Shown here piece after piece: positions 1,948 through 54,596 of a stretch of DNA of 64,000 nt. This DNA is from a virus (lineage: Duplodnaviria > Caudoviricetes): the IMG/VR virus record IMGVR_UViG_3300027608_000010; one strand, written 5' to 3'. Every line of letters begins with the position of its first letter. The stretch's first letter is position 1. Both the position numbers and the translations under genes were made by a program. Under the pieces are notes generated by a model, which was not told the DNA's origin, did not search any database, and saw nothing but the letters and a program-made list of their open reading frames with translations.

Positions 1948-3225
1948 ATGAGTGAAGTAATTGGCAAACGCAAAAAGAATCGTAGTGATAAATTTGATAA
2001 ACTTATCGGACCCACTGACACTAAGATTGATAATCTGGCCCGTGAACGATTAGTCGGCGCACGTATTGGTCTATTGTTGCGTCATAGTTTCTTTGGTAAT
2101 CTTGCTACTCGCATGAAGTTAGTCAATGCTGATGAGTGGTGTGCTACAGCGGCAACAGATGGCTTAAAATTCTATTACAATAGCCGTTTTATTATGATGT
2201 TGAAGCCTAAAGAAGTTGAATTCTTAGTAGGTCATGAAGTGTTACACGTTGTATATGATCACATGGGTCGCCGCAATGAGCGTGATCCGCAAATCTGGAA
2301 CATTGCTGATGACTATGCAGTTAATGCAGACTTAAAACGACATAATGTAGGTCAATTCATTACTACTGTACCTTGCTTATACGAAACAAAATATGATGGT
2401 AAGCCGGCAGAGGAAATTTATGATGACCTGATGAAGAATGTTCAGAAAATTAACATTGACCAATTGATTGATATGTTGCTTGACGATCATATGGATGATG
2501 GCAATGAAGAAGGTGATGGTGACGGACCTGAAGGCAACGGTGACAAGCCCGGACGCCCTCGCATGACACAAGAAGAAAAAGATCGGGCCCGAGCAGAAAT
2601 GAAACAAGCAATCATTGCCGCGGCTCAAGGTGCTGAGGCAGGATCACTACCTAAAGGTGTTGAACGTCTTATCAAAGATGTTACTGAACCTCAGATGCCT
2701 TGGCGTGAACTGATTCAAACTAACTTGACTAGTGCAATTCGTACTGACTACTCTTGGATGCGAGCCAATCGTAAAGGTTGGCACATGGATGCCATCATGC
2801 CCGGTACTACACCCGGTGAAGAGATTGATGTTGTTATTTCACTTGATATGTCAGGTAGTATCAGCAACAAACAAGCACAAGCATTCTTAGGTGAGATCGG
2901 TGGAATGATGGATACTTTTGATGGTTACAAGGTACACATATTTTGTTTCGATACTGATACATACAATCCACAAGACTTTGATAGTGAGAACATGGACAGT
3001 ATTGAACAATACGAACCTCAAGGTGGCGGTGGTACTGACTTTGATTGTATCTTTGATTACTTGAAAGAAAATGCTATTGAACCTAAACGTTTGATTGTAT
3101 TCACTGATGGATATCCTTTTGGTTCTTGGGGTGACCCTGACTATTGTGATACTACTTGGATCATTCACGGTGACAAGAACCCTAGTCCCCCATTCGGTCA
3201 ATTTGCTATTTACGAGGAAAAATAA
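1948..3225 (+). CDS. DUF2201-like metallopeptidase plus VWA domain protein (MoxR partner)
   Basis: HEVLH motif in the N-half; MIDAS-like DMSGS, GGTDF and FTDG in the C-half; acidic Gly-rich linker. Confidence 0.8.
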   Translation: MSEVIGKRKKNRSDKFDKLIGPTDTKIDNLARERLVGARIGLLLRHSFFGNLATRMKLVNADEWCATAATDGLKFYYNSRFIMMLKPKEVEFLVGHEVLHVVYDHMGRRNERDPQIWNIADDYAVNADLKRHNVGQFITTVPCLYETKYDGKPAEEIYDDLMKNVQKINIDQLIDMLLDDHMDDGNEEGDGDGPEGNGDKPGRPRMTQEEKDRARAEMKQAIIAAAQGAEAGSLPKGVERLIKDVTEPQMPWRELIQTNLTSAIRTDYSWMRANRKGWHMDAIMPGTTPGEEIDVVISLDMSGSISNKQAQAFLGEIGGMMDTFDGYKVHIFCFDTDTYNPQDFDSENMDSIEQYEPQGGGGTDFDCIFDYLKENAIEPKRLIVFTDGYPFGSWGDPDYCDTTWIIHGDKNPSPPFGQFAIYEEK

Positions 3226-5311: not shown

Positions 5312-5608
5312 ATGACACCTGAATACATCAGAAAGTGGGAACATATACTTGAAGATGTTGAAAAGAGTAAAGTACCAGTTCAATTCATACGAAAAATTAT
5401 TGTAAGAATGTCTGGGAAAAAACAACACACTATTAACATCCAGGCATTAATGCGTCAAGGATTAGACCCTGAAGAAGTAGAAGAAGTCATCTCTCGCAAA
5501 TTACATGAATTAGACCCTCTAATTACAAGTTTTGAATTTGTTTTGAATGTTGAAACAATTGCACAAACAGTACAACCAGAGACAGATAAGTTATTAGGCA
5601 AACTATGA
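5312..5608 (+). CDS. Hypothetical protein
   Basis: 98-aa ORF, ATGA overlap with DHFR. Confidence 0.65.
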   Translation: MTPEYIRKWEHILEDVEKSKVPVQFIRKIIVRMSGKKQHTINIQALMRQGLDPEEVEEVISRKLHELDPLITSFEFVLNVETIAQTVQPETDKLLGKL

Positions 5609-6057
5609 AACTTATTATAGCATGTGATCCGAAAGGTGGAATCGGCTATGAGAACAAATTGCCCTGGAGTAACATCGAGGGCGATTTGCCAAGATTCAAG
5701 GAACTCACTACGGGTAAGGTAGTGTTCATGGGACGTAACACCTATGAAAGTTTACCTATCAAGCCATTACCAAATAGAACTAGTATTGTTATTACTAGCA
5801 GAGTAATTGATGAGGTGCGTACTATGGAAAGAATAACTGTTAGAGATAGTATTTTTTATAAAGATTCCTGGATCATAGGTGGAGCCAAATTAGTTAATAC
5901 TCATTGGTGGTGTATCGATGAGATACATTTAACCAAGACATTTACCGAATACACTTGCGATAGTTTCATAGATTTGATATACTTAGAAAAACTGTTTAAA
6001 TTAGAAACAGTTGAGGGTTTCAATGACCATGTATACCAAATTTGGAAAAGAAAATGA
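5605..6057 (+). CDS. folA: Dihydrofolate reductase
   Basis: IIACD..GGIG..NKLPW, DL.RFK..T, MGRNTYES, PLPNR, IIGG motifs. Confidence 0.92.
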   Translation: MKLIIACDPKGGIGYENKLPWSNIEGDLPRFKELTTGKVVFMGRNTYESLPIKPLPNRTSIVITSRVIDEVRTMERITVRDSIFYKDSWIIGGAKLVNTHWWCIDEIHLTKTFTEYTCDSFIDLIYLEKLFKLETVEGFNDHVYQIWKRK

Positions 6058-6947
6058 AACAATACTTAGAATTACTGCAAGACATTTTAGATAACGGAGA
6101 AACAAAAGATGATAGAACTGGCGTTGGCACTATTAGTGTGTTTGGACGTAATCTTCGCTTTGATTTGCGTAGGGGTTTTCCGTCTGTCACTACCAAACGA
6201 CTCGCATGGAAAGCCTGCGTTGGAGAACTACTCTGGTTCATCGAAGGCTCGCAGGACGAGAGGCGCCTCGCGGAGATTACGCATGGCAGCAAAGAAGGCA
6301 CCGTAACAATTTGGACACCAAACGCACTTGCAAGTTATTGGAAAGACAAAGCAAAATTTGAAGGTGACTTAGGTAGAGTATACGGAGTGCAATGGCGTCA
6401 TTGGAGAAAATATGACTTGATGGACGTGTATGCTGAATCAGGCAATACTGTAGTAGATGCGGTGAGACACGACATAGACCAATTTAAAAATCTACTTGAA
6501 GGTCTACAAAAAGATCCTAACAGTCGCCGGCATATACTAAGTGCATGGAATGTAGCTGAAATGGATCAAATGGCATTACCGCCATGTCACGTAATGAGTC
6601 AATTTTATGTCAACAAAAATAAAGAACTCTCTTGTCATATGTACCAGCGTAGTGTGGATGTGTTTCTTGGCTTACCTTTTAACATTGCTAGCTATGCGTT
6701 ACTCACTCATCTAATTGCACATCATTGTGGATTGAAGGTTGGAGAACTTATTATTAGCACGGGTGATACACATATATACACGGACCACGTTGAGCAAGTA
6801 AAAGAACAATTGACCCGTGAAGAATTTATGTTGCCAACGTTGATGTTAAACTCATTAAAGAATAATATCTTTGACATGACAATGCAAGATATACATTTAG
6901 AGAATTATCAAAGTCATGGCCCTATCAAAGCAACAATGGCTGTCTGA
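6054..6947 (+). CDS. thyA: Thymidylate synthase
   Basis: DDRTGVGT, RRHILSAWN, LPPCH, YQRSVD.FLGLPFNIASY; start moved to ATG 6054 (ATGA overlap). Confidence 0.95.
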   Translation: MKQYLELLQDILDNGETKDDRTGVGTISVFGRNLRFDLRRGFPSVTTKRLAWKACVGELLWFIEGSQDERRLAEITHGSKEGTVTIWTPNALASYWKDKAKFEGDLGRVYGVQWRHWRKYDLMDVYAESGNTVVDAVRHDIDQFKNLLEGLQKDPNSRRHILSAWNVAEMDQMALPPCHVMSQFYVNKNKELSCHMYQRSVDVFLGLPFNIASYALLTHLIAHHCGLKVGELIISTGDTHIYTDHVEQVKEQLTREEFMLPTLMLNSLKNNIFDMTMQDIHLENYQSHGPIKATMAV

Positions 6948-9735: not shown

Positions 9736-9743
9736 TATTTATC
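9736..9743 (-). promoter_or_regulatory. T4-late-like promoter GATAAATA
   Basis: Reverse strand reads GATAAATA...TTAGGAG...ATG of the nuclease. Confidence 0.65.
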
Positions 9744-11040
9744 AACGATGCTTCATTATCCTACGCATGGTAGCTAAGTCATCATCACCTTCTTGTACTG
9801 GTTCTTCGCCTGTTGCAGGTGCTGCCGATGCTGCCGCCGGTGCTGCTGTAGGTGCTGTTGTAGGTGCTGTTGTAGGTGCTGCCGGTGGCTGAGATAACGT
9901 TCCAGTTGGCGCAGCCTGAGGTTTCATTGTAGCACCTACAGGTACGTTATTCATCGGAACCTTAAAAAGTTGTCCAAGTGAATTGCCATTGGCATCTAGT
10001 GGTACAGCATGATCACCTTGTTGCTGATAATTGGTGTATTTTGGTTTTACTATTGCATCTTTGGGTAGGTAATCTTTATATGTTTTAAATAAACCTTGTC
10101 TAACACCATTTGGGCTAACAGGAATAGCAGTGTCACCATCTTGTTCCCAATAGTCTATTGGTCCTATACCATTTTCATCGTCATCAACTTCATCTAATTC
10201 TTGTGTTCCGTAAGCAAGTCTACGCATTTCTTCTAATTCATAATCACCTTCTGCGAGTCCAGGTTGACCTGCATATGCATTTCCTTTACCAAAAGCTACG
10301 GATGCTTTATAAGCAGGGGCACTTGCAGTATCATTTGCTACGTCAGGCGCCGCCGCGTATGCACTTCCTTTACCAAAAGCTACGGATGCTTTATTAGGGT
10401 CACTTGCAGGACTTGCAGTAGGTGTACTAACAGGTGCTGTTGCAGTTGGAGTCTGCGCCGCCGCCGGCTGAGGAATGTTAACTGCTGTTGGGCTGTTTGG
10501 TACATTTGTAAATGCCGACACACCAGGTAGTCTGTTGGGTTGTGGCGCAACAGTGTTTCTTACATTAGTTTGAGTTTGAGCTAGTGCGGGTGCATTTGAT
10601 GCCATTGGAGGCAATTGCTTGCTCTGTATATTAGTAGGTTCGTTTGGCAACGGAACCGGTAAACTTCCGGGTTTGACATTATCGTAATCGCTAAATTTTT
10701 TACCTGAAGAATCTTTACCTAAATCAACAGGTTTGAAAATGTGGTTAGTAAATCGATTCCATACACCTTTGGCGGTGTCTAAATTATTCTGGCCATCAGT
10801 TTCACGTGCAACTGCTTGCTGTTGAGCTACAGCATCGCCCGGATATGTCTTGCCTCTGTTGCCAGGTTGATTGGACCATTCAATTTCGTTGTCGGATCTA
10901 GTTCGTAGTTTTCCACCTCCGGTATTCCATGTTTGTCCAGGAGTACCACTGCCTACTTCTCCGCGGTCTTCACCAAGAGGAACAACTGCTGTCAGTTTGT
11001 CAAGTATTGCTATATATTCTTTTACGTATTGTGAGTTCAT
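9742..11040 (-). CDS. Low-complexity modular protein, probable internal head protein
   Basis: Start moved to ATG 11040 (AAGGA SD, late box upstream); LGE/LAE/LDE/VQE sites; LEEMRRLAYG helix; internal repeats. Confidence 0.65.
   Translation of the reverse strand: MNSQYVKEYIAILDKLTAVVPLGEDRGEVGSGTPGQTWNTGGGKLRTRSDNEIEWSNQPGNRGKTYPGDAVAQQQAVARETDGQNNLDTAKGVWNRFTNHIFKPVDLGKDSSGKKFSDYDNVKPGSLPVPLPNEPTNIQSKQLPPMASNAPALAQTQTNVRNTVAPQPNRLPGVSAFTNVPNSPTAVNIPQPAAAQTPTATAPVSTPTASPASDPNKASVAFGKGSAYAAAPDVANDTASAPAYKASVAFGKGNAYAGQPGLAEGDYELEEMRRLAYGTQELDEVDDDENGIGPIDYWEQDGDTAIPVSPNGVRQGLFKTYKDYLPKDAIVKPKYTNYQQQGDHAVPLDANGNSLGQLFKVPMNNVPVGATMKPQAAPTGTLSQPPAAPTTAPTTAPTAAPAAASAAPATGEEPVQEGDDDLATMRRIMKHR
9839..9880. 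repeat. 12-nt tandem repeat GGTGCTGTTGTA (about 3.5 copies; APTT on the minus strand)
   Basis: Read directly. Confidence 0.75.
10281..10394. repeat. 30-bp perfect direct repeat, 84-nt period
   Basis: TTCCTTTACCAAAAGCTACGGATGCTTTAT at 10281-10310 and 10365-10394 (KASVAFGKG twice). Confidence 0.9.
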
Positions 11041-11061
11041 GCTGATCCTTGGAAGTATAAA

Positions 11062-11078
11062 GTATTTATGATAAATAC
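11062..11078. promoter_or_regulatory. Palindromic back-to-back late promoters
   Basis: GTATTTAT-G-ATAAATAC perfect inverted repeat between divergent genes. Confidence 0.65.
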
Positions 11079-11101
11079 AATATTGCTTTGACTTAGTGAG
11101 C

Positions 11102-11109
11102 GATAAATA
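11102..11109 (+). promoter_or_regulatory. Late promoter GATAAATA
   Basis: About 20 nt upstream of ATG 11129. Confidence 0.6.
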
Positions 11110-11128
11110 TATTATAACGGAAAGACAC

Positions 11129-11962
11129 ATGGCTACCACACACGTGCTAGAATTAATCGATATAGGTGATTTACCCAATGACGGGACGGGCGATCCATTA
11201 CGAGTTGCCTTTCAAAAGATTAACACAAATTTTGAAAGTATCCCATTATTAAATCAGGGCGGTGCAAATCAATCAATACAGTTCAATAATGATGGACTTA
11301 GCGGTGGTACAGCAAATCTACTATATGACACACCAAATAATGCAATAAAGTTAAATACCGATATTATACCAATAACTACAAATGTAGTTGACATAGGTAG
11401 TAATACCAAAGTAATCTCTAATATTTGGCTAAACAAATTGGATTCATTTCACTTAGGAAATGTAACTATCGGTGAAATTAACAATATTCTTAACATTTTT
11501 AAAACAGGTGACAAGACTTCACAGTCAGATTTACAAGTTGGAAATATTTATGCAACAGGTGAGATCATTGCCATTGGTAATGTTACTTCTACCGGTGATA
11601 TTACTATTAACGGTGGTATTAATCTTTCTAATATATCAATTAATACAGCAAATGTAACCACAACTAGTAACACTGCTAATCAAATTGTATATCAATTGCC
11701 GCAAGTAAATTTTACAACATTGAGATTACAAATTACATCTCATAGACCTGACACCAATGATAGTCAAAGTGTATCCATGACTGTTAATAAAAGAACTGAT
11801 GGAATTCAAGCTAAACACACGGTGTTTGGTACTGTTTTTAACGGTACTCCTCTAACAAGATATAATGCAGATATTTCATTTGGTAATGTGCGAATAATGG
11901 TATCACCAATACCAAATGTAGAAATAATACATTTGGTATCTTTCCTTAACGATGTAGCATAA
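11129..11962 (+). CDS. Virion baseplate/tail-fibre-type structural protein
   Basis: N-terminal NDGTGDPLRVAFQKINTNF motif typical of T4-like gp9/gp10-type anchors; N/T-rich beta repeats; start moved to ATG 11129. Confidence 0.7.
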   Translation: MATTHVLELIDIGDLPNDGTGDPLRVAFQKINTNFESIPLLNQGGANQSIQFNNDGLSGGTANLLYDTPNNAIKLNTDIIPITTNVVDIGSNTKVISNIWLNKLDSFHLGNVTIGEINNILNIFKTGDKTSQSDLQVGNIYATGEIIAIGNVTSTGDITINGGINLSNISINTANVTTTSNTANQIVYQLPQVNFTTLRLQITSHRPDTNDSQSVSMTVNKRTDGIQAKHTVFGTVFNGTPLTRYNADISFGNVRIMVSPIPNVEIIHLVSFLNDVA

Positions 11963-14451: not shown

Positions 14452-15999
14452 ATGAGTAATTCACCCACCCTAGTTAAAGACCCTTATGTTAAGACAAAGT
14501 TTAAGGACGACAAAGAACTAGACGATTTCATCAAGTGCTGTGACCCTGACACGGGTCATCTATACTTCATGGATAACTTCTTTATGATTCAACACCCTAC
14601 TAAGGGTTCAATGGTCTATCATCCTTGGGGATATCAAAAACGATTGATTGAAACATATCATCAATATCGTTTCAGTATCGCATTGATGCCGCGGCAGTCA
14701 GGTAAATCTACATCAGCCGCAGGTTATTTACTATGGTATGCAATGTTTGTTCCAGACAGTACGATTCTTATTGCGGCTCACAAATACACAGGTGCTCAGG
14801 AAATTATGCAACGTATACGTTACGCATATGAAAATTGTCCTGATCACATCAAAGCAGGTGTAACAACATATAACAAAGGCTCATTAGACTTTGAAAACGG
14901 CAGTCGTATTGTATCAGCAACAACTACTGAAAATACTGGTCGTGGTATGTCTATCACATTATTATACTTAGACGAGTTTGCATTCGTGCGCCCAAGTATT
15001 GCAAAAGAGTTTTGGACTGCTATTACTCCTACATTGTCAACTGGTGGTAAAGCAATTATTACTAGTACACCCAATAGTGATGAGGATCAATTTGCTTTCA
15101 TCTGGAAAGGCGCAAACAAAACAGAAGATGAGTTTGGTAATAAGACTGAGATAGGTGTAAACGGATTCAGAGCATATCAAGCACATTGGAGTGAACAGCC
15201 CGGACGTGATGATAAATGGGCCGGGGAAATGAAAGCACAACTCGGTGAAGATAGATTCCGCCGAGAGATTGGTTGCGAATTTTTAATTGCTGATGAGACA
15301 TTGATTAATCCTAACACACTGATTGATTTAAAGGGCAATGAACCAACACATCGTATTGGACAGATTCGTTGGTACAAGCGTCCTGAGAAGGGTAATGTTT
15401 ATGCTGTAGGATTAGATCCAAGTCTTGGTACAGGTAGTGACCCATCAGCTATTCAAATCTTTGAAGCAAACACAACAACTCAGATTGGTGAGTGGAAACA
15501 TAACCGTACTGATATTCCAAGTCAGATTAAATTGTTAGCACAGATTAACAGATACATTGTTGAATGTACTAATGAACCAAACAGTATCTACTACAGTATT
15601 GAGAATAATACAATTGGTGAGGCTGCATTGATTTCACTACATGAGTTTGGTGAAAGTAATATACCGGGTATCTTTATCTCTGAGCCCGGAAAAAAGCGCA
15701 AAGGCTTTAACACCACACAGAAATCTAAATTGGCTGCTTGTGCTAAGTTTAAGACATTACTAGAGAGTAAAAAAATGACCATCAACAGTCATAGTCTAAT
15801 CAGTGAATTAAAAGCATTTGTAGCCCATGGTGGAAGCTATGCGGCTAAGATCGGAGATACTGATGACTTGGTCATGGCCTCATTATTATCAGTCAGAGTA
15901 ATGCAACAATTAAGTGAATATCATGTAGATTTAGACAATCATTTACGTGACCATGAAGAATTTATATCTCCATTGCCCTTCTTTGCGGTGATAAGTTAA
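14452..15999 (+). CDS. terL: Terminase large subunit (T4 gp17-like)
   Basis: PRQSGKS Walker A, LLYLDEFAF Walker B, ITSTPN motif III, GLDPSLG and DDLVMA nuclease aspartates. Confidence 0.95.
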   Translation: MSNSPTLVKDPYVKTKFKDDKELDDFIKCCDPDTGHLYFMDNFFMIQHPTKGSMVYHPWGYQKRLIETYHQYRFSIALMPRQSGKSTSAAGYLLWYAMFVPDSTILIAAHKYTGAQEIMQRIRYAYENCPDHIKAGVTTYNKGSLDFENGSRIVSATTTENTGRGMSITLLYLDEFAFVRPSIAKEFWTAITPTLSTGGKAIITSTPNSDEDQFAFIWKGANKTEDEFGNKTEIGVNGFRAYQAHWSEQPGRDDKWAGEMKAQLGEDRFRREIGCEFLIADETLINPNTLIDLKGNEPTHRIGQIRWYKRPEKGNVYAVGLDPSLGTGSDPSAIQIFEANTTTQIGEWKHNRTDIPSQIKLLAQINRYIVECTNEPNSIYYSIENNTIGEAALISLHEFGESNIPGIFISEPGKKRKGFNTTQKSKLAACAKFKTLLESKKMTINSHSLISELKAFVAHGGSYAAKIGDTDDLVMASLLSVRVMQQLSEYHVDLDNHLRDHEEFISPLPFFAVIS

Positions 16000-16019: not shown

Positions 16020-19000
16020 ATGTCCAAAGAACAAGAATCCCTTAAAACCGAAATTTATGGCTTACTTAAGAGCCGCGGGTTAAATCCCGTAAGTAAAGAT
16101 AGCTCAGGAGATACTGTACCTATCCCCACAGAAGCAGAAGTCTTTGAATTTATGTTCAGCAAAGACGGAAAAGACTATGGTAAAGTTTGGGTAACACTTG
16201 ATGGTTTACAACAGTTAATAGTTTATTTTGGTAAAGATGTAGCTGACAGTCCAAAGAACGGATCAGAAGATAGTAATTCATGGTCACAATTACATAGAGC
16301 ATTAAGCAGATTCGCAACAGGAAGACAACTTAGTTTTGAACTGAGTGATCAATCTAATTTAGAGGCAGATATGGCAAAAAGAGAACACACAAAAAGAGAA
16401 GAACAAGTCAATGAGGGTTATTATCCAATTGGCAAAAATGCTAGTGGTAACAACAATGTTCCATCAGTTACAATGCGTATTCAACATACTCGTCCGATTG
16501 AGGAAGGTGAGCAACGTTTTCGTAACATTGCACGAATCTTTGTTGAAAATCAAGATGGTGAAAGAATTCTATTACCAACGACAAAGCCAGGACTTGCACG
16601 TACATATGTAAGACATATTGCTGAAGGTGGTAAACCAAATGATGAACGTTGGAATCACTTAGGTAGTTTGTGTGAAGAATATCAAAAGATGGCAGGATTT
16701 GTTCGTGCCACTCGCAATGGACAGTTTAATGAATCAGCACAAAGTCTAGTTAATGAAGGTATTAATCATTATCAAAAACTACGTGAGACCTTAGGTAAAT
16801 TACAAGGTAAGCGTGGATACAATGAATACTTTGAAAGCTATACACCTGCATTAATGGAAGATGAAGAACAAGTTGACTTGAGCGAAATGTTTATGAGTTC
16901 AAGTTTAGATCCTCGCATTGAAAGTGTAATGCCAATATTAAGCAAACTTAGTAAGAATATTACTGAAACTAAAAAAGATATGGCAGAGACTATTGCTTTA
17001 GAAGAATGGGCTGATAGTTTAATGGATAGAACTTCTAATACAAATGAGGCACAATCTGCTAGTGTTCGTATGCAGAAAGCATTGCAACGTGAAAAAGAAA
17101 AACGTGAATATAGTCAACAATATGCCGAGAAGAATTTCCCAATAGGTAAGAACCCAGAACCAATCAAAGAGCCAAGCAAAGAAGTTAAAGAGGGCGACCA
17201 ACGTAAGTTAGATATTGTCAAACGTATGCACGGTATTCTAAGTAAAAATAAAGAACAAGGCATGGCCGAAGGCATAAATCCAAATGAGTTGCTTGGTTCT
17301 GTCTATGATTCAAAAAATAGATATTTAGGCACTTGGAACGGACAACGTTTAGTAATTGATCCTAGTGTCTGGAAGAAATGGAAAGATGAGAATGGTCAAG
17401 ACTGGGCCAGCGGTATGGTAGGGATGGCCAAAGATAGGATAGCATCCGGTGTATGGACAGTACAGCAACCAGAAGGTGTGGCAGAAGAAAGCAAATATTC
17501 TAACTTATCTAACCGCGGAGTAAATCGTGGAATAAATCGTGCCGCTGATGATTTTAACAGAATGCTGGACCTTGACCAAGCAGAATCACCACATTATAAA
17601 ACACAACATCAACAAGATACAAAGCAAAGACTAAAAACAAAACCCATGGCAGGTCCCAAAGGTATGTTACCAGAGCAGGGTGTGGCGGAAGGCCAGTTAG
17701 ACGAGATTGGTGATACCCCAGCCGGTCAAGCAGCCTTACAAAGGTATGGAAACAAGGCTCACGATCAAGTAGCCGCACATTGGAAACAAGTTCATAATAA
17801 GAGTCATTTGCCAACAGACACAAAGATGGCAAAGCGTAATTCAGGTACTGTTGCGGCAGACAATAGAATACACGGTTTCGGTATTGCTAAAAATCAACAA
17901 GATAAAGTCACGGATCGTTTTAAATATCGTGATGCTGTTGGTACAACTCATGTATATCAAAAAAACGATCCATTAGAACAAGGTGTGGGCGAAGGTATTG
18001 TACCAAAACCCTATATGCCTCCTGGACTAGCAAGCGCCACAACCCCTCCATCAGACAATACTTCTAGAGGATGGAAAGGCCATGAGTGGGATCCAGAACA
18101 AGATAATAATGTTGAACATTTGACTTTTCAAACTAGAATGCAAACAACAGAAAAACCAGGTATGAAACCCACTACTACTTATGATACGCAAAATACTTCA
18201 AGTAAAACCGGAATTACTTCAACCCATGAGGTTGATGTAGATGAAGGTCTATCAAGACTAAGAGAACTTGCAGGCGTGCAAGGTATGGCCGAAGCCGATC
18301 GTCCTGGATTGCCACCCAAACTCAATCCTCACGGAATGTCTCAAGCCCAGATTGATGATAGAATGACATCAGTTGGTTTTATTCCAGGAACACGTGACCA
18401 TGCTACAGCGGTGCAACTGTACAGGGCTGCAAACCCGAACACCGCTAGACCAGTGTCGAAACCACTTCCCCGCAGTGATATTCAAGGTACTGATGTTGGC
18501 CCGTTACCACTATCACCTTTAGGAAGAGGTCAAGATAATCCTCATTCTCCAGTAACAAATGTAGATGTATCTGGCAATTCACAAGGTACTGATGTTGGCC
18601 CGTTACCACTATCACCTTTAGGAAGAGGTCAAGATAATCCTTATTCTCCAGTAACAAATGTAGATGTATCTGGCAATTCACAACGTCCAGTTAGAGTTGA
18701 TGTCCGTGGATATGGACCTGAGCCTGATGAATTCGGTCGCCAGCACAACGGTAGCCATGAATCTGACATTGAGATGGAAGAAGGTGTGGCGGAAGCCGAC
18801 GATTTTGGTATAGGTCCTGGGGGTCCTCGTCAACCAGCTGGGCCAATTGGTACTGGTCCAGAAAGCATCCCCAACACAGGCGCTCCAGATGTTAAAAACT
18901 ATAAAGCTCCATTGACCGACAAGTATGGTTGGACTCCCGGATCAAAGGCAGGTGGATGGGACGCTGCTGGGCAACAAAAATACATAGATCGTACTGCCCC

Positions 19001-19160
19001 GGGTGTTATCAACAACATCAAAGACAAATTGGGTTATGACATGCCCGATCCTGACCATGGCCCTAGACCAGATGAAACACAACGACTGGCTAAACTCTAT
19101 CCTAAGTCAACAAACGAAAATGCCGAACTATCTAGAATCAAAAAACTTTCTGGAATGTAA
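16020..19160 (+). CDS. Modular polyprotein-like head protein (1046 aa)
   Basis: Globular-looking N-terminal third, then unrelated modules separated by EQG[VM]AE[GAE] linkers; ends ELSRIKKLSGM. Confidence 0.75.
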   Translation: MSKEQESLKTEIYGLLKSRGLNPVSKDSSGDTVPIPTEAEVFEFMFSKDGKDYGKVWVTLDGLQQLIVYFGKDVADSPKNGSEDSNSWSQLHRALSRFATGRQLSFELSDQSNLEADMAKREHTKREEQVNEGYYPIGKNASGNNNVPSVTMRIQHTRPIEEGEQRFRNIARIFVENQDGERILLPTTKPGLARTYVRHIAEGGKPNDERWNHLGSLCEEYQKMAGFVRATRNGQFNESAQSLVNEGINHYQKLRETLGKLQGKRGYNEYFESYTPALMEDEEQVDLSEMFMSSSLDPRIESVMPILSKLSKNITETKKDMAETIALEEWADSLMDRTSNTNEAQSASVRMQKALQREKEKREYSQQYAEKNFPIGKNPEPIKEPSKEVKEGDQRKLDIVKRMHGILSKNKEQGMAEGINPNELLGSVYDSKNRYLGTWNGQRLVIDPSVWKKWKDENGQDWASGMVGMAKDRIASGVWTVQQPEGVAEESKYSNLSNRGVNRGINRAADDFNRMLDLDQAESPHYKTQHQQDTKQRLKTKPMAGPKGMLPEQGVAEGQLDEIGDTPAGQAALQRYGNKAHDQVAAHWKQVHNKSHLPTDTKMAKRNSGTVAADNRIHGFGIAKNQQDKVTDRFKYRDAVGTTHVYQKNDPLEQGVGEGIVPKPYMPPGLASATTPPSDNTSRGWKGHEWDPEQDNNVEHLTFQTRMQTTEKPGMKPTTTYDTQNTSSKTGITSTHEVDVDEGLSRLRELAGVQGMAEADRPGLPPKLNPHGMSQAQIDDRMTSVGFIPGTRDHATAVQLYRAANPNTARPVSKPLPRSDIQGTDVGPLPLSPLGRGQDNPHSPVTNVDVSGNSQGTDVGPLPLSPLGRGQDNPYSPVTNVDVSGNSQRPVRVDVRGYGPEPDEFGRQHNGSHESDIEMEEGVAEADDFGIGPGGPRQPAGPIGTGPESIPNTGAPDVKNYKAPLTDKYGWTPGSKAGGWDAAGQQKYIDRTAPGVINNIKDKLGYDMPDPDHGPRPDETQRLAKLYPKSTNENAELSRIKKLSGM
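17253..18797 (+). repeat. Six dispersed in-frame linker repeats of about 21 nt (E-Q/E-G-V/M-A/G-E-G/A/E)
   Basis: Copies start at 17253, 17472, 17673, 17976, 18276, 18777, all in the frame of CDS 16020. Confidence 0.85.
18483..18683 (+). repeat. 99-bp tandem duplication (33 aa)
   Basis: Copies at 18483 and 18582 differ by one base (CAT/TAT, His/Tyr). Confidence 0.92.
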
Positions 19161-19325: not shown

Positions 19326-20336
19326 ATGGCATCATTAGCAGAAATTCGTGCTCGCATCGCGGCACAAGAAAACAAGTCAGGGAACAACGGTTCTACAAAA
19401 CAATCTGACAACTTAATCTACCCCCACTGGAATATGGACGAAGGCACTACAGCCTCTTTGCGCTTTCTTCCAGATGCAGACAGCAAAAATCCCTGGGGTT
19501 TCTGGGTAGAACGTCAAATCATCAAACTACCATTTAATGGTGTTAAAGGTGATTCAAACGTAAAACAAATTCAAGTACAAATACCTTGCGTTGAAATGTA
19601 CAACGATGGTTCTTCTTGTCCAATTTTGGCAGAAGTTCGTCCTTGGTATAAAGATGAATCACTAAAAGAATTGGCAAACAAGTACTGGAAGAAACGTAGT
19701 TATATATACCAAGGTTTTGTTCGTCAAAATCCTATCGGTGATGACACAACACCTGCGAACCCAATTCGTAAGTTTATTATCAGTTCGCAAATTTTCAGTA
19801 TTATCAAGTCATCATTGACTGATCCTGAAATGGAAGAATTGCCAACTGACTATTTGCGCGGTCTTGACTTCAACGTTAAGAAATCAAGCAAAGGTGGTTA
19901 TGCTGATTATTCTACATCAACATGGTCACGTAAAGAAAGTGCATTGACTGACCTTGAATTGGCAGCAATTGAAGCACATGGTTTGTACACATTGTCTGAC
20001 TTCTTACCTAAGAAGCCAGGTGAAGCAGAACTACGCATTATGAAAGAAATGTTTGAAGCAAGCGTAGACGGTCAACCATACGACAATGAACGTTGGGGTA
20101 ACTATTTCAGACCTTATGGTTTAGAAGCACCTGCAGGAACGACAGCGGCAGCAACAAAAGCGTCTACTGAAACTAGCGCACCCGCGACTGCACCTATAGC
20201 AGAGTCTGCACCATTTGATACTGATGAACCATCAACAGCATCAGCTCCAATCTCAGTCCCTACATCAGCTCCTAGCAGTGATAAAGCACAAGACATTCTT
20301 GCAATGATTCGTGCTAGACAAGCAAAAACTGCTTAA
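19326..20336 (+). CDS. Single-stranded DNA-binding protein (T4 gp32-like)
   Basis: LRFLP, CPIL....PWY...E..LANKYWKKRSY, YADYS.S, C-terminal DILAMIRAR. Confidence 0.88.
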   Translation: MASLAEIRARIAAQENKSGNNGSTKQSDNLIYPHWNMDEGTTASLRFLPDADSKNPWGFWVERQIIKLPFNGVKGDSNVKQIQVQIPCVEMYNDGSSCPILAEVRPWYKDESLKELANKYWKKRSYIYQGFVRQNPIGDDTTPANPIRKFIISSQIFSIIKSSLTDPEMEELPTDYLRGLDFNVKKSSKGGYADYSTSTWSRKESALTDLELAAIEAHGLYTLSDFLPKKPGEAELRIMKEMFEASVDGQPYDNERWGNYFRPYGLEAPAGTTAAATKASTETSAPATAPIAESAPFDTDEPSTASAPISVPTSAPSSDKAQDILAMIRARQAKTA

Positions 20337-20623: not shown

Positions 20624-21688
20624 TTGGGTAAGCCATTTGATGTAAGTAAATTTAGAAAAGAAATCACTAAGTCCATTGAAGGCCTTAGTATAGGGTTTAA
20701 CGATCCGACTGACTGGATCAATACAGGAAATTATGCACTTAACTATCTTATTAGTGGTGACTTTAACAAAGGGGTTCCTCTTGGCAAAGTCACTGTATTT
20801 GCTGGCGAGTCTGGTTCCGGAAAAAGTTTTATTTGTTCCGGTAACTTGGTACGTCATGCTCAACAACAAGGTATCTTTGTGGTACTCATCGATTCGGAAA
20901 ATGCTTTAGATGAGAAGTGGTTACACGCATTAGGTGTGCAAACTACAGAAGATAAATTGTTAAAATTAAATATGGCTATGATTGATGATGTAGCCAAGAC
21001 AATCAGTAAATTTGTTATTGATTATAAAACACTTCCAGCAGATGACAGACCTAAGGTATTGTTTGTCATTGATAGTTTGGGAATGTTACTAACACCCACT
21101 GACGTAAATCAGTTTGAAGCAGGTGATATGAAGGGTGACATGGGTCGTAAGCCTAAAGCATTGGCTGCACTTGTTCGTAACTCTGTTAACATGTTCGGTA
21201 GTTTAAATATTGGTATGGTTGCAACTAATCATACATACGCAAGTCAGGATATGTTTGATCCAGATGACAAAGTATCAGGTGGTCAAGGCTTTGTGTATGC
21301 TAGTAGTATTCTTGTTGCTATGAAGAAACTCAAACTCAAAGAGGATGAGGATGGTAACAAAGTTTCAGAAGTAAATGGTATTCGTGCCGCATGTAAGATT
21401 ATGAAAACACGTTACGCTAAACCTTTTGAAACACTACAGATTAAGATTCCATACGAAACAGGTATGAACCCATATAGTGGTCTACTTGATTTGTTTGAGA
21501 AGAATGACTTGTTGACTAAAGAAGGTAATCGTTTGAGTTATACAACCGATGACGGAGAAATCTTAAAGATGTTCCGTAAAGGTTGGGAATCAAATGAAGG
21601 TGGTTGCTTAGATAAAGTCATGGATGAATTTAGTAAAAATCACGGAAAAAAGCTAAGTACTGAATCAGTGGAGGAGGCAGTACAATGA
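20624..21688 (+). CDS. uvsX: RecA/UvsX recombinase (TTG start)
   Basis: AGESGSGKS Walker A, LIDSE, VIDSLG, SGGQGFVYASS; AGGAG SD. Confidence 0.92.
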   Translation: MGKPFDVSKFRKEITKSIEGLSIGFNDPTDWINTGNYALNYLISGDFNKGVPLGKVTVFAGESGSGKSFICSGNLVRHAQQQGIFVVLIDSENALDEKWLHALGVQTTEDKLLKLNMAMIDDVAKTISKFVIDYKTLPADDRPKVLFVIDSLGMLLTPTDVNQFEAGDMKGDMGRKPKALAALVRNSVNMFGSLNIGMVATNHTYASQDMFDPDDKVSGGQGFVYASSILVAMKKLKLKEDEDGNKVSEVNGIRAACKIMKTRYAKPFETLQIKIPYETGMNPYSGLLDLFEKNDLLTKEGNRLSYTTDDGEILKMFRKGWESNEGGCLDKVMDEFSKNHGKKLSTESVEEAVQ

Positions 21689-50996: not shown

Positions 50997-53900
50997 ATGG
51001 CACTAGTATCACCAGGCGTAGAAGTAAATATCATCGACCAAAGTCAATATTTACCAGCAGCCACAAATTCAGTTCCGTTGCTAATTGTTGCATCAGCACA
51101 AAATAAAGCAAACGCCGCAGGCACAGCAGTAGCTGTAGGAACAACAAAAGCAAATGCAGGTAAATTATATCAAGTAACAAGTCAACGTGACTTAACTACT
51201 TTGTTTGGTAATCCATTCTTCTATAAGACAACAAATGGTACACCGATTCATGGATATGAATTAAACGAATATGGTTTATTAGCAGCCTATTCATTATTGG
51301 GCACAACAAATCGTTGCTATATTTTAAGAGCAGATATCGATTTATCAGAATTTGTAGGATCAGTTTCTAGACCATCAGGTGAAGCGGTAGATGGTACATA
51401 TTGGTTAGATACAACTAATAGTACATGGGGCATTTATGAATTTAATGCTACGTCTGGTAAGTTTGTTAATCAAATTCCATATGTTCTTACAAGTACCGAT
51501 CAATTAACTGATGCACGACATCCATTAGATACCATTGGTAACGTGGGAGAATATGCAATTGTTGCAATGCATCACGCTGGTGAGCCTGCCGGGGATAGTA
51601 CCTATTTCTATAAAATGATGGATAATACATGGATGACATTAAATAGTGATTCATTGGCTTCAAGTAATCCATCAGTAAGTTCTACTATCTCTAATCCAAC
51701 ATTAACTACTGGATATAGTTTTGATATAACATTAACCTGTGAGGCAAGCGGAATGGCATCAACAACCAATATTATTGTAGCCGCCGGTGATGATGTGAAC
51801 GATATTGCAACTTATCTTAATAATTTAAACGACATTCAATTTAACGCTGACGTAATTGATAATAAATTGAATATCTATGTAGTTGATGGAAATATTGTCA
51901 CATTAGCTAATCATTCCACTGACGGTTCCTTGCTTACTCAATTGGGAATTACTGCAGGTTCTTATTATGGTGTTACATGTCATTATGGTACCAGTGCTCA
52001 AATGCCATTATGGACTTCAAGTCAGGCAAAACCCCGTGCTACTGGATCTGTTTGGATTAAAACAAGCAGCGCCGGGAATGGATTATCACTATCACTCTCA
52101 AAATATAGCGTAGCAACTGCTAGTTGGACTTCACAATTTGTTTCAGCATATGGTAGCGAAATTAACGCAACCGCTGCATTAGATAGTACTGGTGGAAAGG
52201 CTATTCCCCAAAATACAATTTTTGCAAGATATGCTAGTCCTGGTGCTGGCGGTAGTCAAAGTACTGCACCAGTAAAATTATTTAATAGACTGGCTACGGG
52301 GCCTACAGTTACTACTACAACAATAGCTAACCCTACAATTACTACAGGCAATAGTTTTACTGTATATGTGAGTATTCCTGGTGAAAGATTGTCTAGTATA
52401 GATTTACCCGCAACCAAAATAATATTCGAGAATACAGGAACAACCGCGGCTTCATTTGTTACAGATTGGCAAAATGCTCAAATTCCCTATACAACTGCTA
52501 CATTAACAACTGATGGAACTATTCAAATTACTCATACATTAGGTGGTGAAATTTTTATATCAGATATTGACCCTATAACACTCCAACGCTCAGATGTATT
52601 GTATGCTGATTTAGGATTTGATGGGGTAGGTATTAAATATGGACCGATACATACATTTACTGTATCTGTTACACCTGAAGCAGTAACAACATCCGGCACA
52701 GGTGGATCAATTTCCGTGTCTGTGGATAGTGCAGGAAAATATATAATAAACACTGTTAGTGGTGGTTCCGGTTACGCAGTGGGTGATGTTTTAAAAGTCA
52801 GTGGTGGTTATCTTAGTGGTTCTAACGGTGTTAATGATTTGAAATTAAATGTCACTAAAGTTAATGCAGGATCTTTGGAATCAGTTAGAATATCAACAAC
52901 AACTCAATTTGCAGATAGAAAGTATTATACCCAAATTTCAAATTGGGAAGAAATTGAGTATACTGCAAATGAAGGTGCTCCTGTAGAATTACCTGCAAAC
53001 GGTAGATATTGGTACTTTAGCACACCAAGTCAAGTTGATATCATGGTCAACCAAGGTGGAGTATGGAAGGGATATAGAAATGTAAACTTTGATAGTTCTG
53101 GTCATCCAGCTAACTCAGGAACAAATAATACTGATTCTACGGGCCCTATTGTTAGTGCATCAGCACCAATAACGCAAAGTGATGGAACTGTATTGGTTTA
53201 TGGTGATCTATGGCTTGATTCTGCTGATTTAGAAAACTATCCAATGTTATATCGTTGGGAAGCAGTTAGTAGTGTAGATCAATGGGTTTTGATTGATAAA
53301 AATGACCAAACTAGTAGTAATGGTATTTTGTTTGCTGATGCAAGATGGAGTCATTCGGGTGCTGTGAATCCAGTAGATGATCCTATTCCATCTATAACTA
53401 CTTTATTAACTAGTAATCACTTAGATTTAGATGCACCAAATCCAGCTTTATCTCCACAGGGTATGTTATTATTCAATACACGCCGTTCAGGATACAATAT
53501 TAAAGAATTCAAGACTAATTATTTTACAAACAAAAATTATCCTAATGCCGGTAACTATAATTCAGGCGCACCGACAAACAATGCTAATTTACCTCAAGTA
53601 AGTTATGCTTGGGTTAGTGCTAGCGGATTGAAGTCAGATGGTTCGGCTTACTTAGGTCGTCACGCACAGCGTCATATGATTGTGTCAGCGATGAAATCGG
53701 TAATTGATACAAATCAAACTATACGTGAAGAAGATAATTTCTTTAACTTGATAGCAGCTCCTGGTTATCCAGAACTACAACCTAATATGGTAACGTTAAA
53801 CAATGACCGCAATAATACTGCTTACATTGTAGGTGATACTCCATTAAGATTACCAGATCAAGCTACTAATATTACAAATTGGGCGACTAATGAAGCATTA

Positions 53901-54596
53901 GCAACCGAGTCAGGTGAAGATGGTTGGGTTACCCGTGATACGTATTTAGGTGTGTTCTACCCAAGCGGTATTACATCAGATACAACAGGTACAGCCGCAG
54001 TTGTTCCTGCAAGTCATATGATGTTACGCACGTTACTAAGAAACGATACATTGGGTTATCCTTGGTTAGCTCCAGCAGGTACACGCCGTGGTACAATTGA
54101 CAACGCTACAAATATTGGATACTTAGATGCTACTACTGGTGAATTCCAAGTAGTTAAGAATCGTATGAGTATTCGTGATGTGTTATATTTGAATCAAATC
54201 AATCCATTAGCATTCTTTACTGGTGTTGGTCTATTGAATTATGGTAATAAGAACTCATTTGATTCACAATCAGCATTGGATCGCATCAATGTATCACGTT
54301 TAGTTTGTTATATTCGTGAAAGACTGCAAGTTGCGGCTCGTCCATTCGTATTCGAACCAAACGATGCTCTTACACGTAATCAACTTACCGGTGTTGTTCA
54401 GTCATTGTTTATTGACTTAGTTGGAAAGCGCGGATTGTATGACTATCTAGTTGTATGTGATGCAAGTAATAATACTCCATCTAGAATTGATAGAAATGAA
54501 TTGTGGATTGATATTGCAATTGAGCCAGTTAAGGCAGCAGAATTCATTTACATACCGGTTCGTGTTATGAACACCGGGGCTATTGGAGCTCAATAA
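50997..54596 (+). CDS. Contractile tail sheath protein (gp18-like), 1199 aa
   Basis: MALVSPGVEV, LFGNP, PWLAPAGTRRG, ALDRINVSRL, FVFEPND, IEPVKAAEFIYI. Confidence 0.93.
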   Translation: MALVSPGVEVNIIDQSQYLPAATNSVPLLIVASAQNKANAAGTAVAVGTTKANAGKLYQVTSQRDLTTLFGNPFFYKTTNGTPIHGYELNEYGLLAAYSLLGTTNRCYILRADIDLSEFVGSVSRPSGEAVDGTYWLDTTNSTWGIYEFNATSGKFVNQIPYVLTSTDQLTDARHPLDTIGNVGEYAIVAMHHAGEPAGDSTYFYKMMDNTWMTLNSDSLASSNPSVSSTISNPTLTTGYSFDITLTCEASGMASTTNIIVAAGDDVNDIATYLNNLNDIQFNADVIDNKLNIYVVDGNIVTLANHSTDGSLLTQLGITAGSYYGVTCHYGTSAQMPLWTSSQAKPRATGSVWIKTSSAGNGLSLSLSKYSVATASWTSQFVSAYGSEINATAALDSTGGKAIPQNTIFARYASPGAGGSQSTAPVKLFNRLATGPTVTTTTIANPTITTGNSFTVYVSIPGERLSSIDLPATKIIFENTGTTAASFVTDWQNAQIPYTTATLTTDGTIQITHTLGGEIFISDIDPITLQRSDVLYADLGFDGVGIKYGPIHTFTVSVTPEAVTTSGTGGSISVSVDSAGKYIINTVSGGSGYAVGDVLKVSGGYLSGSNGVNDLKLNVTKVNAGSLESVRISTTTQFADRKYYTQISNWEEIEYTANEGAPVELPANGRYWYFSTPSQVDIMVNQGGVWKGYRNVNFDSSGHPANSGTNNTDSTGPIVSASAPITQSDGTVLVYGDLWLDSADLENYPMLYRWEAVSSVDQWVLIDKNDQTSSNGILFADARWSHSGAVNPVDDPIPSITTLLTSNHLDLDAPNPALSPQGMLLFNTRRSGYNIKEFKTNYFTNKNYPNAGNYNSGAPTNNANLPQVSYAWVSASGLKSDGSAYLGRHAQRHMIVSAMKSVIDTNQTIREEDNFFNLIAAPGYPELQPNMVTLNNDRNNTAYIVGDTPLRLPDQATNITNWATNEALATESGEDGWVTRDTYLGVFYPSGITSDTTGTAAVVPASHMMLRTLLRNDTLGYPWLAPAGTRRGTIDNATNIGYLDATTGEFQVVKNRMSIRDVLYLNQINPLAFFTGVGLLNYGNKNSFDSQSALDRINVSRLVCYIRERLQVAARPFVFEPNDALTRNQLTGVVQSLFIDLVGKRGLYDYLVVCDASNNTPSRIDRNELWIDIAIEPVKAAEFIYIPVRVMNTGAIGAQ

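Follow-up and report, generated by a model that had tools for sequence, protein, structure and literature searches.

A stretch of viral DNA of 64,000 nucleotides (nt) (Duplodnaviria; Caudoviricetes; IMG/VR record IMGVR_UViG_3300027608_000010), which is called the window in the following, contains an open reading frame (ORF) at positions 16020–19160 of the plus strand. Its product of 1046 amino acids (aa), P0001, begins with a conserved N-terminal domain (N-domain), which is followed by a chain of unrelated modules, connected by six copies of a short in-frame sequence, here termed the joint. As judged from sequence comparisons, the product of the ORF is probably a precursor protein which is associated with the head of an uncultured jumbo phage from freshwater, and its joints would act both in recombination and in cleavage. 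The first of these roles is well supported by comparisons with related genes; the second, a maturation cleavage site, is plausible in view of the residues of the joints and their predicted surroundings. The interest of this gene lies in the fact that one short in-frame element appears to serve the exchange of DNA as well as the processing of proteins across many genes and phages.

The joints and the anatomy of the protein

An earlier note on this DNA, which was made from the letters alone, had placed six in-frame linkers at positions 17253, 17472, 17673, 17976, 18276 and 18777, and all were confirmed at these sites. Their consensus peptide is (E/Q)(Q/E)G(V/M)(A/G)E(G/A/E), encoded by about 18–21 nt. 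The pattern G[VM][AG]E[GAE] has six matches in P0001, while 20,000 shuffles of the protein gave a mean of 0.022 and a maximum of 2; in the six reading frames of the 64-kb window, G[VMIL][AG]E[GAES] occurs outside the joints just once, on the minus strand at 10260. When the DNA consensus CAAGGTGTGGCGGAAGG was searched with up to three mismatches, six matches were obtained in the window, all of them joints (0.06 expected). The codon bias described in the note was also present: Val at P3 is encoded by GTG in 4 of 4 cases (window background 12%), and the third base is C or G in five of the six P2 codons (GCC, GCA, GCG, GGC, GCC, GCG); of the background Ala codons, 82% are GCA or GCT. The modules are indeed dissimilar to each other, the sole similarity being a 99-nt tandem duplication inside module E. 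The features of the ORF are as follows; models were made with AlphaFold2 (AF2), and confidence is given as predicted local distance difference test (pLDDT).

16020–19160 (+): whole ORF, 1046 aa, P0001
16020–17054 (+): conserved N-domain, aa 1–345 (homologue identity, AF2 model)
17055–17270 (+): basic region preceding joint 1, aa 346–417, pI 9.6 (composition)
17253–17273 (+): joint 1, EQGMAEG (GAA CAA GGC ATG GCC GAA GGC), left crossover partner in the loss of modules A–C in the relative L310
17271–17486 (+): module A, aa 418–489, Trp-rich (sequence, AF2 model)
17472–17489 (+): joint 2, EGVAEE (GAA GGT GTG GCA GAA GAA), upstream end of the module B tract shared with locus L060
17487–17690 (+): module B, aa 490–557, basic (protein and DNA comparison)
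17673–17693 (+): joint 3, EQGVAEG (GAG CAG GGT GTG GCG GAA GGC), downstream end of the module B tract; one mismatch to the clade consensus
17691–17993 (+): module C, aa 558–658, LDEIGDTPAG... (comparison with L308 and L309)
17976–17996 (+): joint 4, EQGVGEG (GAA CAA GGT GTG GGC GAA GGT), right crossover partner of joint 1
17994–18293 (+): module D, aa 659–758, mostly predicted disordered, with one predicted beta-hairpin (AF2 model)
18276–18296 (+): joint 5, VQGMAEA (GTG CAA GGT ATG GCC GAA GCC) (sequence)
18294–18794 (+): module E, aa 759–925, Pro/Gly-rich, predicted disordered (composition, AF2 model)
18483–18680 (+): 99-nt in-frame tandem duplication within module E, two copies, 99% identical
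18777–18797 (+): joint 6, EEGVAEA (GAA GAA GGT GTG GCG GAA GCC), start of the tract shared with L310
18795–19157 (+): module F, aa 926–1046, Gly/Pro-rich, with the conserved tail at its end (composition, AF2 model)
19107–19157 (+): C-terminal tail, predicted amphipathic helix, ...NAELSRIKKLSGM, pLDDT 85–91 (family conservation, AF2 model)

Internal translation starts at the joints were ruled out, as a start codon downstream is absent; a genome-wide DNA element was likewise ruled out, the motif being confined within the window to ORF 16020–19160.

Recombination at the joints

The note had proposed that the linker is a recombination junction, and comparative evidence supports this: insertions or deletions and tracts of high identity break there, modules recur elsewhere, and silent sites are constrained. 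The clearest case is the closely related locus L310, whose N-domain DNA is 90% identical and which lacks modules A–C. Its upstream alignment with the window stops within joint 1, the downstream one starts at joint 4, and both overlap by 24 nt in KDQGM|GEGI, a hybrid of joints 1 and 4, so that here the loss in an orthologue breaks at linkers, as had been anticipated. The same joint 1/joint 4 crossover is matched by a repeat pair (D5) within the window ORF. A second DNA tract, with 96.8% identity to L310, opens at the first codon of joint 6; the region upstream of it is 76% identical.

Single modules tell of similar events. The core of module B (aa 492–548) has 94.2% DNA identity with L060, and 47 of 51 conserved residues use the same codon, compared to 73.3% identity and 52 of 91 identical codons in that block of the N-domain which is most conserved between both genes; module B has therefore moved recently. 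As a protein it is 92% identical to modules in proteins with N-domains of about 56% identity. Module C is 83–85% identical in L309, which has a divergent N-domain, and in L308, a protein of 924 aa which has the same type of tail as the family despite the absence of the N-domain. Altogether, five joints of the window ORF (1, 2, 3, 4 and 6) are directly seen as breakpoints.

A more general test was based on gene pairs with 73–78% N-domain identity, in which C-terminal DNA tracts of at least 90% identity were collected. The 64 tracts had 80 unique ends, 51% of them within 6 nt of the Glu codon of a [VILM]xE (null 10.7%) and 45.5% within 6 nt of a strict joint (null 2.1%). The first breakpoint test, with all ends of protein high-scoring segment pairs (HSPs), had given an enrichment of just 1.6-fold, because of noisy weak HSPs; with HSPs limited to at least 70% identity the trend was the same, weaker than in the DNA tracts. 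Concerning the shuffling of modules which the note had envisaged, gain, loss and replacement are evident, and modules are found again in further genes and beside different neighbours; free permutation of their order is not, since both orders occurred in only 10 of 271 co-occurring pairs.

Conservation at silent sites

The constraint on synonymous sites which had been suspected for the linkers was found in 65 family genes, where GTG accounts for 63% of the P3 Val codons of linkers versus 8% of the Val codons elsewhere in the same genes, and GCG for 68% of the P2 Ala codons of linkers versus 4% elsewhere. At least 120 IMG/VR stretches contain an exact 17-mer of the joint, and a single gene often has several copies of it; synonymous versions with the preferred codons GTT-GCA and GTA-GCA are present in 33 and 50 stretches, respectively, almost always once per stretch. 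Of the 256 codings which are possible for QGVAEG, a single one, the canonical version, is used at 7 of the 11 such sites in three large genomes. Across 154 distinct contexts the sequence information drops to background about 3 nt on either side of the joint, and the flanking sequences are unrelated; the conserved unit therefore comprises about 20–21 nt, (G/A)AG CAA GGT GTG GCG GAA GGC. Two properties expected of motif-guided recombination, namely tract ends at the motif above chance and conservation of silent sites, were consequently both observed.

Occurrence of the joint in other genes and phages

The joint is not special to the window gene; from the sequences compared, it is a clade-wide feature of many multi-domain phage proteins. 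Among the matches listed for the 17-mer, 98 of 103 are in frame within ORFs of at least 150 aa, and 3 of 82 ORFs bearing it have the N-domain. The contig of L060 (G002, 263.7 kb) contains the same joint, with the same DNA, in four other large multi-domain proteins (199546–203001, 203054–204616, 228463–229971 and 229968–232448). A cytidine/dCMP deaminase domain begins just after the joint in one of them; GP88 and DUF6321 domains, Zn-ribbon-like CxxC pairs and a DGNHR motif are found in others. A leader resembling the T4 capsid-targeting sequence is located at the N-terminus of three of the four, and many joint-bearing ORFs elsewhere begin with M-(R/N/K)-x-(K/S/N)-(E/Q)-(L/I/F)-(L/I/V)-E, e.g., MRFKQIVE, MNFKELLE or MRFSEIISE, which recalls this T4 sequence (PMC9026906).

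Modules of the family were also found in other G002 genes and as small stand-alone ORFs. Two of these, at 129499–129849 (+; 116 aa) and 196670–197116 (+; 148 aa), are about 53% identical to modules of the family polyproteins; modules therefore exist as separate genes, too. A literature search, including a text search for "GVAEG", did not reveal a paper describing such a joint.

The protein family, its N-domain and its tail

Among 8000 candidates scored, 885 homologues were found, and 80 loci on viral contigs were retrieved. All 885 share the N-domain (aa 1 to about 340) with 55–95% identity, so that the N-terminal region, which had been noted as globular-looking, is a real conserved domain. 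The lengths of the proteins vary widely, from 580 to 1141 aa (best 120 of 885). Between N-domain and tail, greedy clustering, which was used since single-linkage clustering over-merged, gave dozens of recurring modules of 25–200 aa. There are 150 distinct architectures among 164 family proteins, and common modules each have up to 13 different kinds of neighbours per side. In homologues without QGVAE the modules still end in V/L/I/M-x-E, e.g., EVDE, LVGE, PVKE or RVDE, a boundary statistic which is partly circular, because the modules were cut at such sites.

A tblastn search with P0001 against cultured phages gave matches of the N-domain only, namely with 11 PA5oct-like phages (E 4e-10 to 1e-9 over aa 11–356; about 23% identity and E about 5e-10 for the protein EST35_0206 of PA5oct); a megablast search with the region of terminase gene and ORF against cultured phages gave no match. 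The N-domain also matches phrog_13484 (E 9.7e-07, aa 118–271) and belongs by homology to the PA5oct gp206-like family; beyond these, no informative relatives of the domain were found. EST35_0206 of the Pseudomonas jumbo phage PA5oct, a member of phrog_13484, is according to its record a virion structural protein, which was detected by electrospray ionisation tandem mass spectrometry. This homologue (496 aa) differs from the window protein in having neither joint array nor scaffold-like tail, and its gene is not located beside the terminase gene. PA5oct has the N-domain only; the virion evidence therefore covers this domain alone.

The AF2 model of the N-domain is of moderate confidence (mean pLDDT 77.7). 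A profile search of the PDB with the N-domain gave nothing below E 0.49, and Foldseek with its model against the PDB nothing below E 0.046; the best Z score with VIA-align wide was 6.6, which is within the range of noise, and the ESM Atlas returned unnamed viral clusters and weak GNAT-like rows with TM values of 0.3 or less. These results are weak, and the N-domain is therefore assigned to no fold. One distant structural relative is labelled "Large polyvalent protein-associated domain". An identity as portal protein was rejected, since the N-domain is too small and a portal family match is absent.

The C-terminal tail is conserved family-wide as ...EGQEDLDAIKRLLGK and variants; the window protein ends as given in the list above. 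Family tails such as DLDAIKRLLGK and LSRIKKLSGM resemble the tails of gp22-like scaffold proteins in five relatives (NVIDIKRLAGL, NVIELKRLAGL, NVVEIKRLAGLK). The scaffold pattern, (V/I)(I/V)(D/E)(I/L)KRLAGL, is present in L088 at 5464–6564 (−), and in genes of L082, L084, L306 and L307. Among the 524 ORFs of G002, only the scaffold gene and the family gene carry such a tail. The common tail may be a shared docking signal, which, by analogy with the C-terminus of the scaffold, would bring the precursor into the prohead core. Taken together, the PA5oct virion homologue, the adjacent terminase gene and the scaffold-like tail suggest that the protein is probably associated with the head.

A further protein of the window, encoded at 9742–11178 (−), ends in a similar tail, ...EGDDDLATMRRIMKHR (cf. 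family tails DELARILTIMNHRR). It contains the other linker-like site of the window, QPGLAE|GD at 10260, which is encoded by the ordinary codons GGA CTC GCA GAA GGT. The protein is rich in Ala, Pro and Thr, has no PHROG match, and probably starts with MNSQYVKEYIAIL; it may be another protein which is loaded into the prohead core.

Proposed cleavage by a head protease

The prohead protease of phage T4, gp21, recognises L/I-X-E and cleaves behind the Glu, and the T4 core proteins are broken down to numerous fragments which exit the head (PMC9026906). In the joints, V/M-(A/G)-E precedes G, A or E, which agrees with a relaxed gp21 rule as regards the Glu and the hydrophobic P3. All six joints are located in segments which are predicted to be flexible, with pLDDT below 50 in the AF2 model. 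A Peptidase_S77 gene is present in the relatives G002, G003, G005, G007 and G009 (E 1e-29 to 8e-25), where it adjoins a gp23-type capsid gene, and the head module of G002 has the T4-like order portal, small acidic proteins, protease, scaffold and gp23-type capsid. In the capsid proteins of the relatives, L-(A/K)-E|(S/N) is conserved some 40 residues ahead of GVQPM, at the place where T4 gp23 is cut.

From these data the following course of events can be proposed. In the DNA, the comparisons show the joints to be sites at which modules are gained, lost and exchanged among related phages; since the joint is in frame, crossing over between two of them always keeps the reading frame intact. Silent positions are held to rare codons (CAA GGT GTG GCG GAA GGC) in many unrelated genes and contigs, as would be expected if crossovers need or regenerate the identity of joints. 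The crossovers could be due to UvsX-type homology-guided recombination, to selection for breakpoints between modules, or to both. As to the protein, the precursor would enter the prohead by means of its scaffold-like tail, and a gp21-type protease would there cut after the Glu of each joint, yielding an N-terminal piece of 47 kDa (N-domain and basic stretch) and six peptides of 8–18 kDa. These could be retained as internal peptides, be injected, or leave in order to free space for DNA.

A stronger version would hold that the joint of about 20 nt, (G/A)AG CAA GGT GTG GCG GAA GGC, is a dedicated, clade-wide, in-frame element for cassette exchange, with the DNA guiding crossovers and the peptide ensuring cutting by the head protease, and with modules moving among genes of head-loaded precursors and among co-infecting phages. 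This version is put forward as a tentative suggestion.

Several observations weigh against a double role of the joints. Concerning recombination, some insertions or deletions are located off the joints, such as the 99-nt duplication in module E, of which homologues have one copy, and about half of the tract ends are away from any joint. The six joints share perfect identity over 8–13 nt only, which is short for homologous recombination, and breakpoints at joints could also arise through selection against breaks inside modules. Concerning cleavage, P3 is V or M, not L/I as in the T4 rule. Protease, capsid and scaffold genes were not found in the 64-kb window; the link to a protease rests on relatives for this reason. 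In the nearest record, G001 (41.8 kb), neither a protease nor a capsid gene was found, and Peptidase_S77 was not found in G010. In G008, which contains joints, an S77 protease or a gp23-type capsid was not detected by Pfam profile and protein searches; either the contig lacks the head module or has a strongly diverged one, or the phage uses the joint together with a protease of another type. The PA5oct genome has no site coding for QGVAEG, and its N-domain protein no joint array. A T4-like N-terminal targeting leader is absent from P0001, which starts with MSKEQESLKTEIYG and matches no leader pattern.

G008 is the contig of L143, with a size of 342,865 bp and an estimated completeness of 99%; it has four canonical joint cores.

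Alternative explanations

The most probable of the alternatives, although of limited probability, is that of a scaffold-like core protein: the tail would dock in the prohead core, the disordered middle would be filler or spacer, the protease would cut up the chain, the fragments would exit as do those of T4 gp22, gp67 and gp68, and the modules would be without function after injection. The resemblance of the tail to the scaffold C-terminus, which is otherwise unique in G002, is in agreement with this, as are the wide variation in length of the middle part and the many head-exiting fragments of T4 core proteins (PMC9026906). The C-terminal half is polar, rich in Pro and Gly, and gave no match with PHROGs, while the whole protein matched no Pfam family at E ≤ 0.01. 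Its mean pLDDT in the AF2 model is 50.5, with 407 of 642 residues below 50, so that it is predicted to be mostly disordered and not a chain of folded domains. The model shows mostly coil at low confidence; the long coiled-coil helical rod which would be expected of a gp22-like scaffold is absent. Small ordered islands are confidently predicted in modules A, C and D, the best of them being the small fold of module A (pLDDT about 69–83, aa 425–465), and this does not suit mere filler. Neither does the strong conservation of modules B (92%) and C (83–85%) across distant phages, which argues that the modules are more than filler, nor the fact that the PA5oct homologue of the N-domain remains in the virion.

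The earlier note had thought of injected cargo, possibly anti-defence peptides, which would be freed by cleavage in the head and delivered with the DNA. For the joint-bearing proteins of other genes there is something to be said for this, since the same joint connects enzyme domains there (deaminase, GP88 and DUF6321 in G002), many of these ORFs start with a T4-like targeting leader, a high turnover of modules would fit an arms race, and the concept of polyvalent proteins offers a framework (PMC5512222). The idea found no support for the window gene, with its modules matching no family, its largely disordered C-terminal half and the missing leader; moreover, no module could be tied to any defence system, and cargo of this kind appears unlikely. 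The disordered C-terminal half fits a precursor of core proteins or internal peptides better than a chain of effectors, and we lean towards a scaffold-like or internal-peptide role of the window gene over enzyme-like effectors.

With a similarly low probability, the joints could be uncleaved flexible spacers, kept by copying during recombination and by the survival of breaks between modules, their likeness to protease sites being a coincidence. The evidence for recombination stands independently of cleavage, G008 has joints and no detected S77 protease, and hydrophobic-x-Glu is a very short motif which is common by chance (the null of 10.7% within 6 nt given above). The conservation of G, V/M/L, A/S/G and E despite differing codons (GLSE, GMSE, GISE) goes, however, beyond the needs of a spacer, and even homologues without QGVAE end their modules in V/L/I/M-x-E (EVDE, LVGE, PVKE). 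That the silent sites are conserved for translation or for the RNA and not for recombination, e.g., for a pause at rare codons between modules which aids folding, is very improbable: the conserved GTG, GCG and GGC are rare in these AT-rich genomes, but any rare codon would do for a pause, whereas one version dominates (7 of 11 sites), the mostly disordered modules have little folding to protect, and the ends of tracts at joints would be left unexplained.

Neighbouring genes

Immediately upstream of ORF 16020–19160 a large terminase gene of T4 type adjoins (14452–15999; Terminase_6N/6C). Downstream follow a gene for a gp32-like single-stranded DNA-binding protein (19326–20336) and a UvsX/RecA-like gene (20624–21688); this order of four genes is also present in the close relative L310. 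Other genes of the window code for a DnaB-like helicase, further helicases, a tail sheath and an HNH endonuclease; the window is therefore a piece of a large myovirus genome. Contigs of relatives reach about 360 kb. The HNH endonuclease gene (1948–3225, +) matches phrog_1314 with E 2e-108, and the tail sheath (50997–54596, +; phrog_10581) is unusually long, with 1199 aa.

Comparison with known systems

The nearest models are the core and internal proteins of T4 which are processed by gp21; polyvalent proteins are also close, and motif-guided recombination offers a third comparison. Like the T4 proteins IPI, IPII, IPIII, Alt, gp22, gp67 and gp68, the window protein is proposed here to be loaded into the prohead core and to be cut after Glu at hydrophobic-x-Glu. 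Several cut sites and small fragments, which are known from T4 core proteins (PMC9026906), are predicted for it as well, and the order portal, protease, scaffold and capsid, with Peptidase_S77, links the relatives of the window phage to the T4 head module. The substrates of gp21 are single proteins with one N-terminal leader of 10 residues, whereas here unrelated modules are strung in one chain with a stereotyped internal joint; in place of the leader, the window protein has a scaffold-like C-terminal tail. P3 is L/I in T4 sites and V/M in the joints. We know of no T4 counterpart to the conservation of a cleavage site at the level of DNA.

Polyvalent proteins, as described by Iyer, Burroughs, Anand, de Souza and Aravind in 2017, are large mosaic proteins which string together disparate domains and whose packaging and processing are predicted, with zincin-like metallopeptidase domains as the proposed processing enzymes (PMC5512222). 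The word "linker" is absent from that paper, and a conserved linker is not mentioned (PMC5512222). The joint proteins of G002 conform to the polyvalent type with their disparate domains (deaminase, GP88, DUF6321). The window ORF does not: it has no recognisable enzymatic domain, and Pfam and PHROG searches revealed no peptidase domain in P0001, including zincin-like metallopeptidases.

The joint invites comparison with further systems in which short conserved DNA flanks variable segments and marks the points of exchange between phages. In T-even phages, His-box motifs in the genes for distal tail fibres reportedly guide recombination (Tetart, Desplats and Krisch, 1998), and mobile regulatory cassettes, PeSL, are said to shuffle genes in T4-type genomes (Arbiol et al., 2010); the "linker" idea of modular evolution, attributed to Botstein, is related. 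Compared to His boxes and PeSL, the joint is intragenic, in frame and only about 20 nt long, it connects unrelated protein modules instead of domain variants or whole genes, and its sequence encodes a probable protease site, too.

Significance

The window ties one joint-bearing family to a virion protein with support from mass spectrometry, and the scaffold-like tail of this family suggests a second, C-terminal route into the prohead besides N-terminal leaders. If the joint is indeed a dedicated element for cassette exchange, it would be a counterpart, at the level of proteins, of the cassette array of integrons, and a concrete case of Botstein's hypothetical linker sequences. If the double role of the joint is true, phages would possess a simple route by which sets of small proteins are assembled, rearranged and delivered, since crossovers at joints stay in frame and the products are cut to parts within the capsid. 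A cleavable, recombination-friendly linker of this type could serve for loading foreign proteins into T4-type capsids. The double role would, moreover, account for the extreme mosaicism which the head-loaded proteins of uncultured jumbo phages show, and would provide a testable example of sequence-guided modular evolution within genes.

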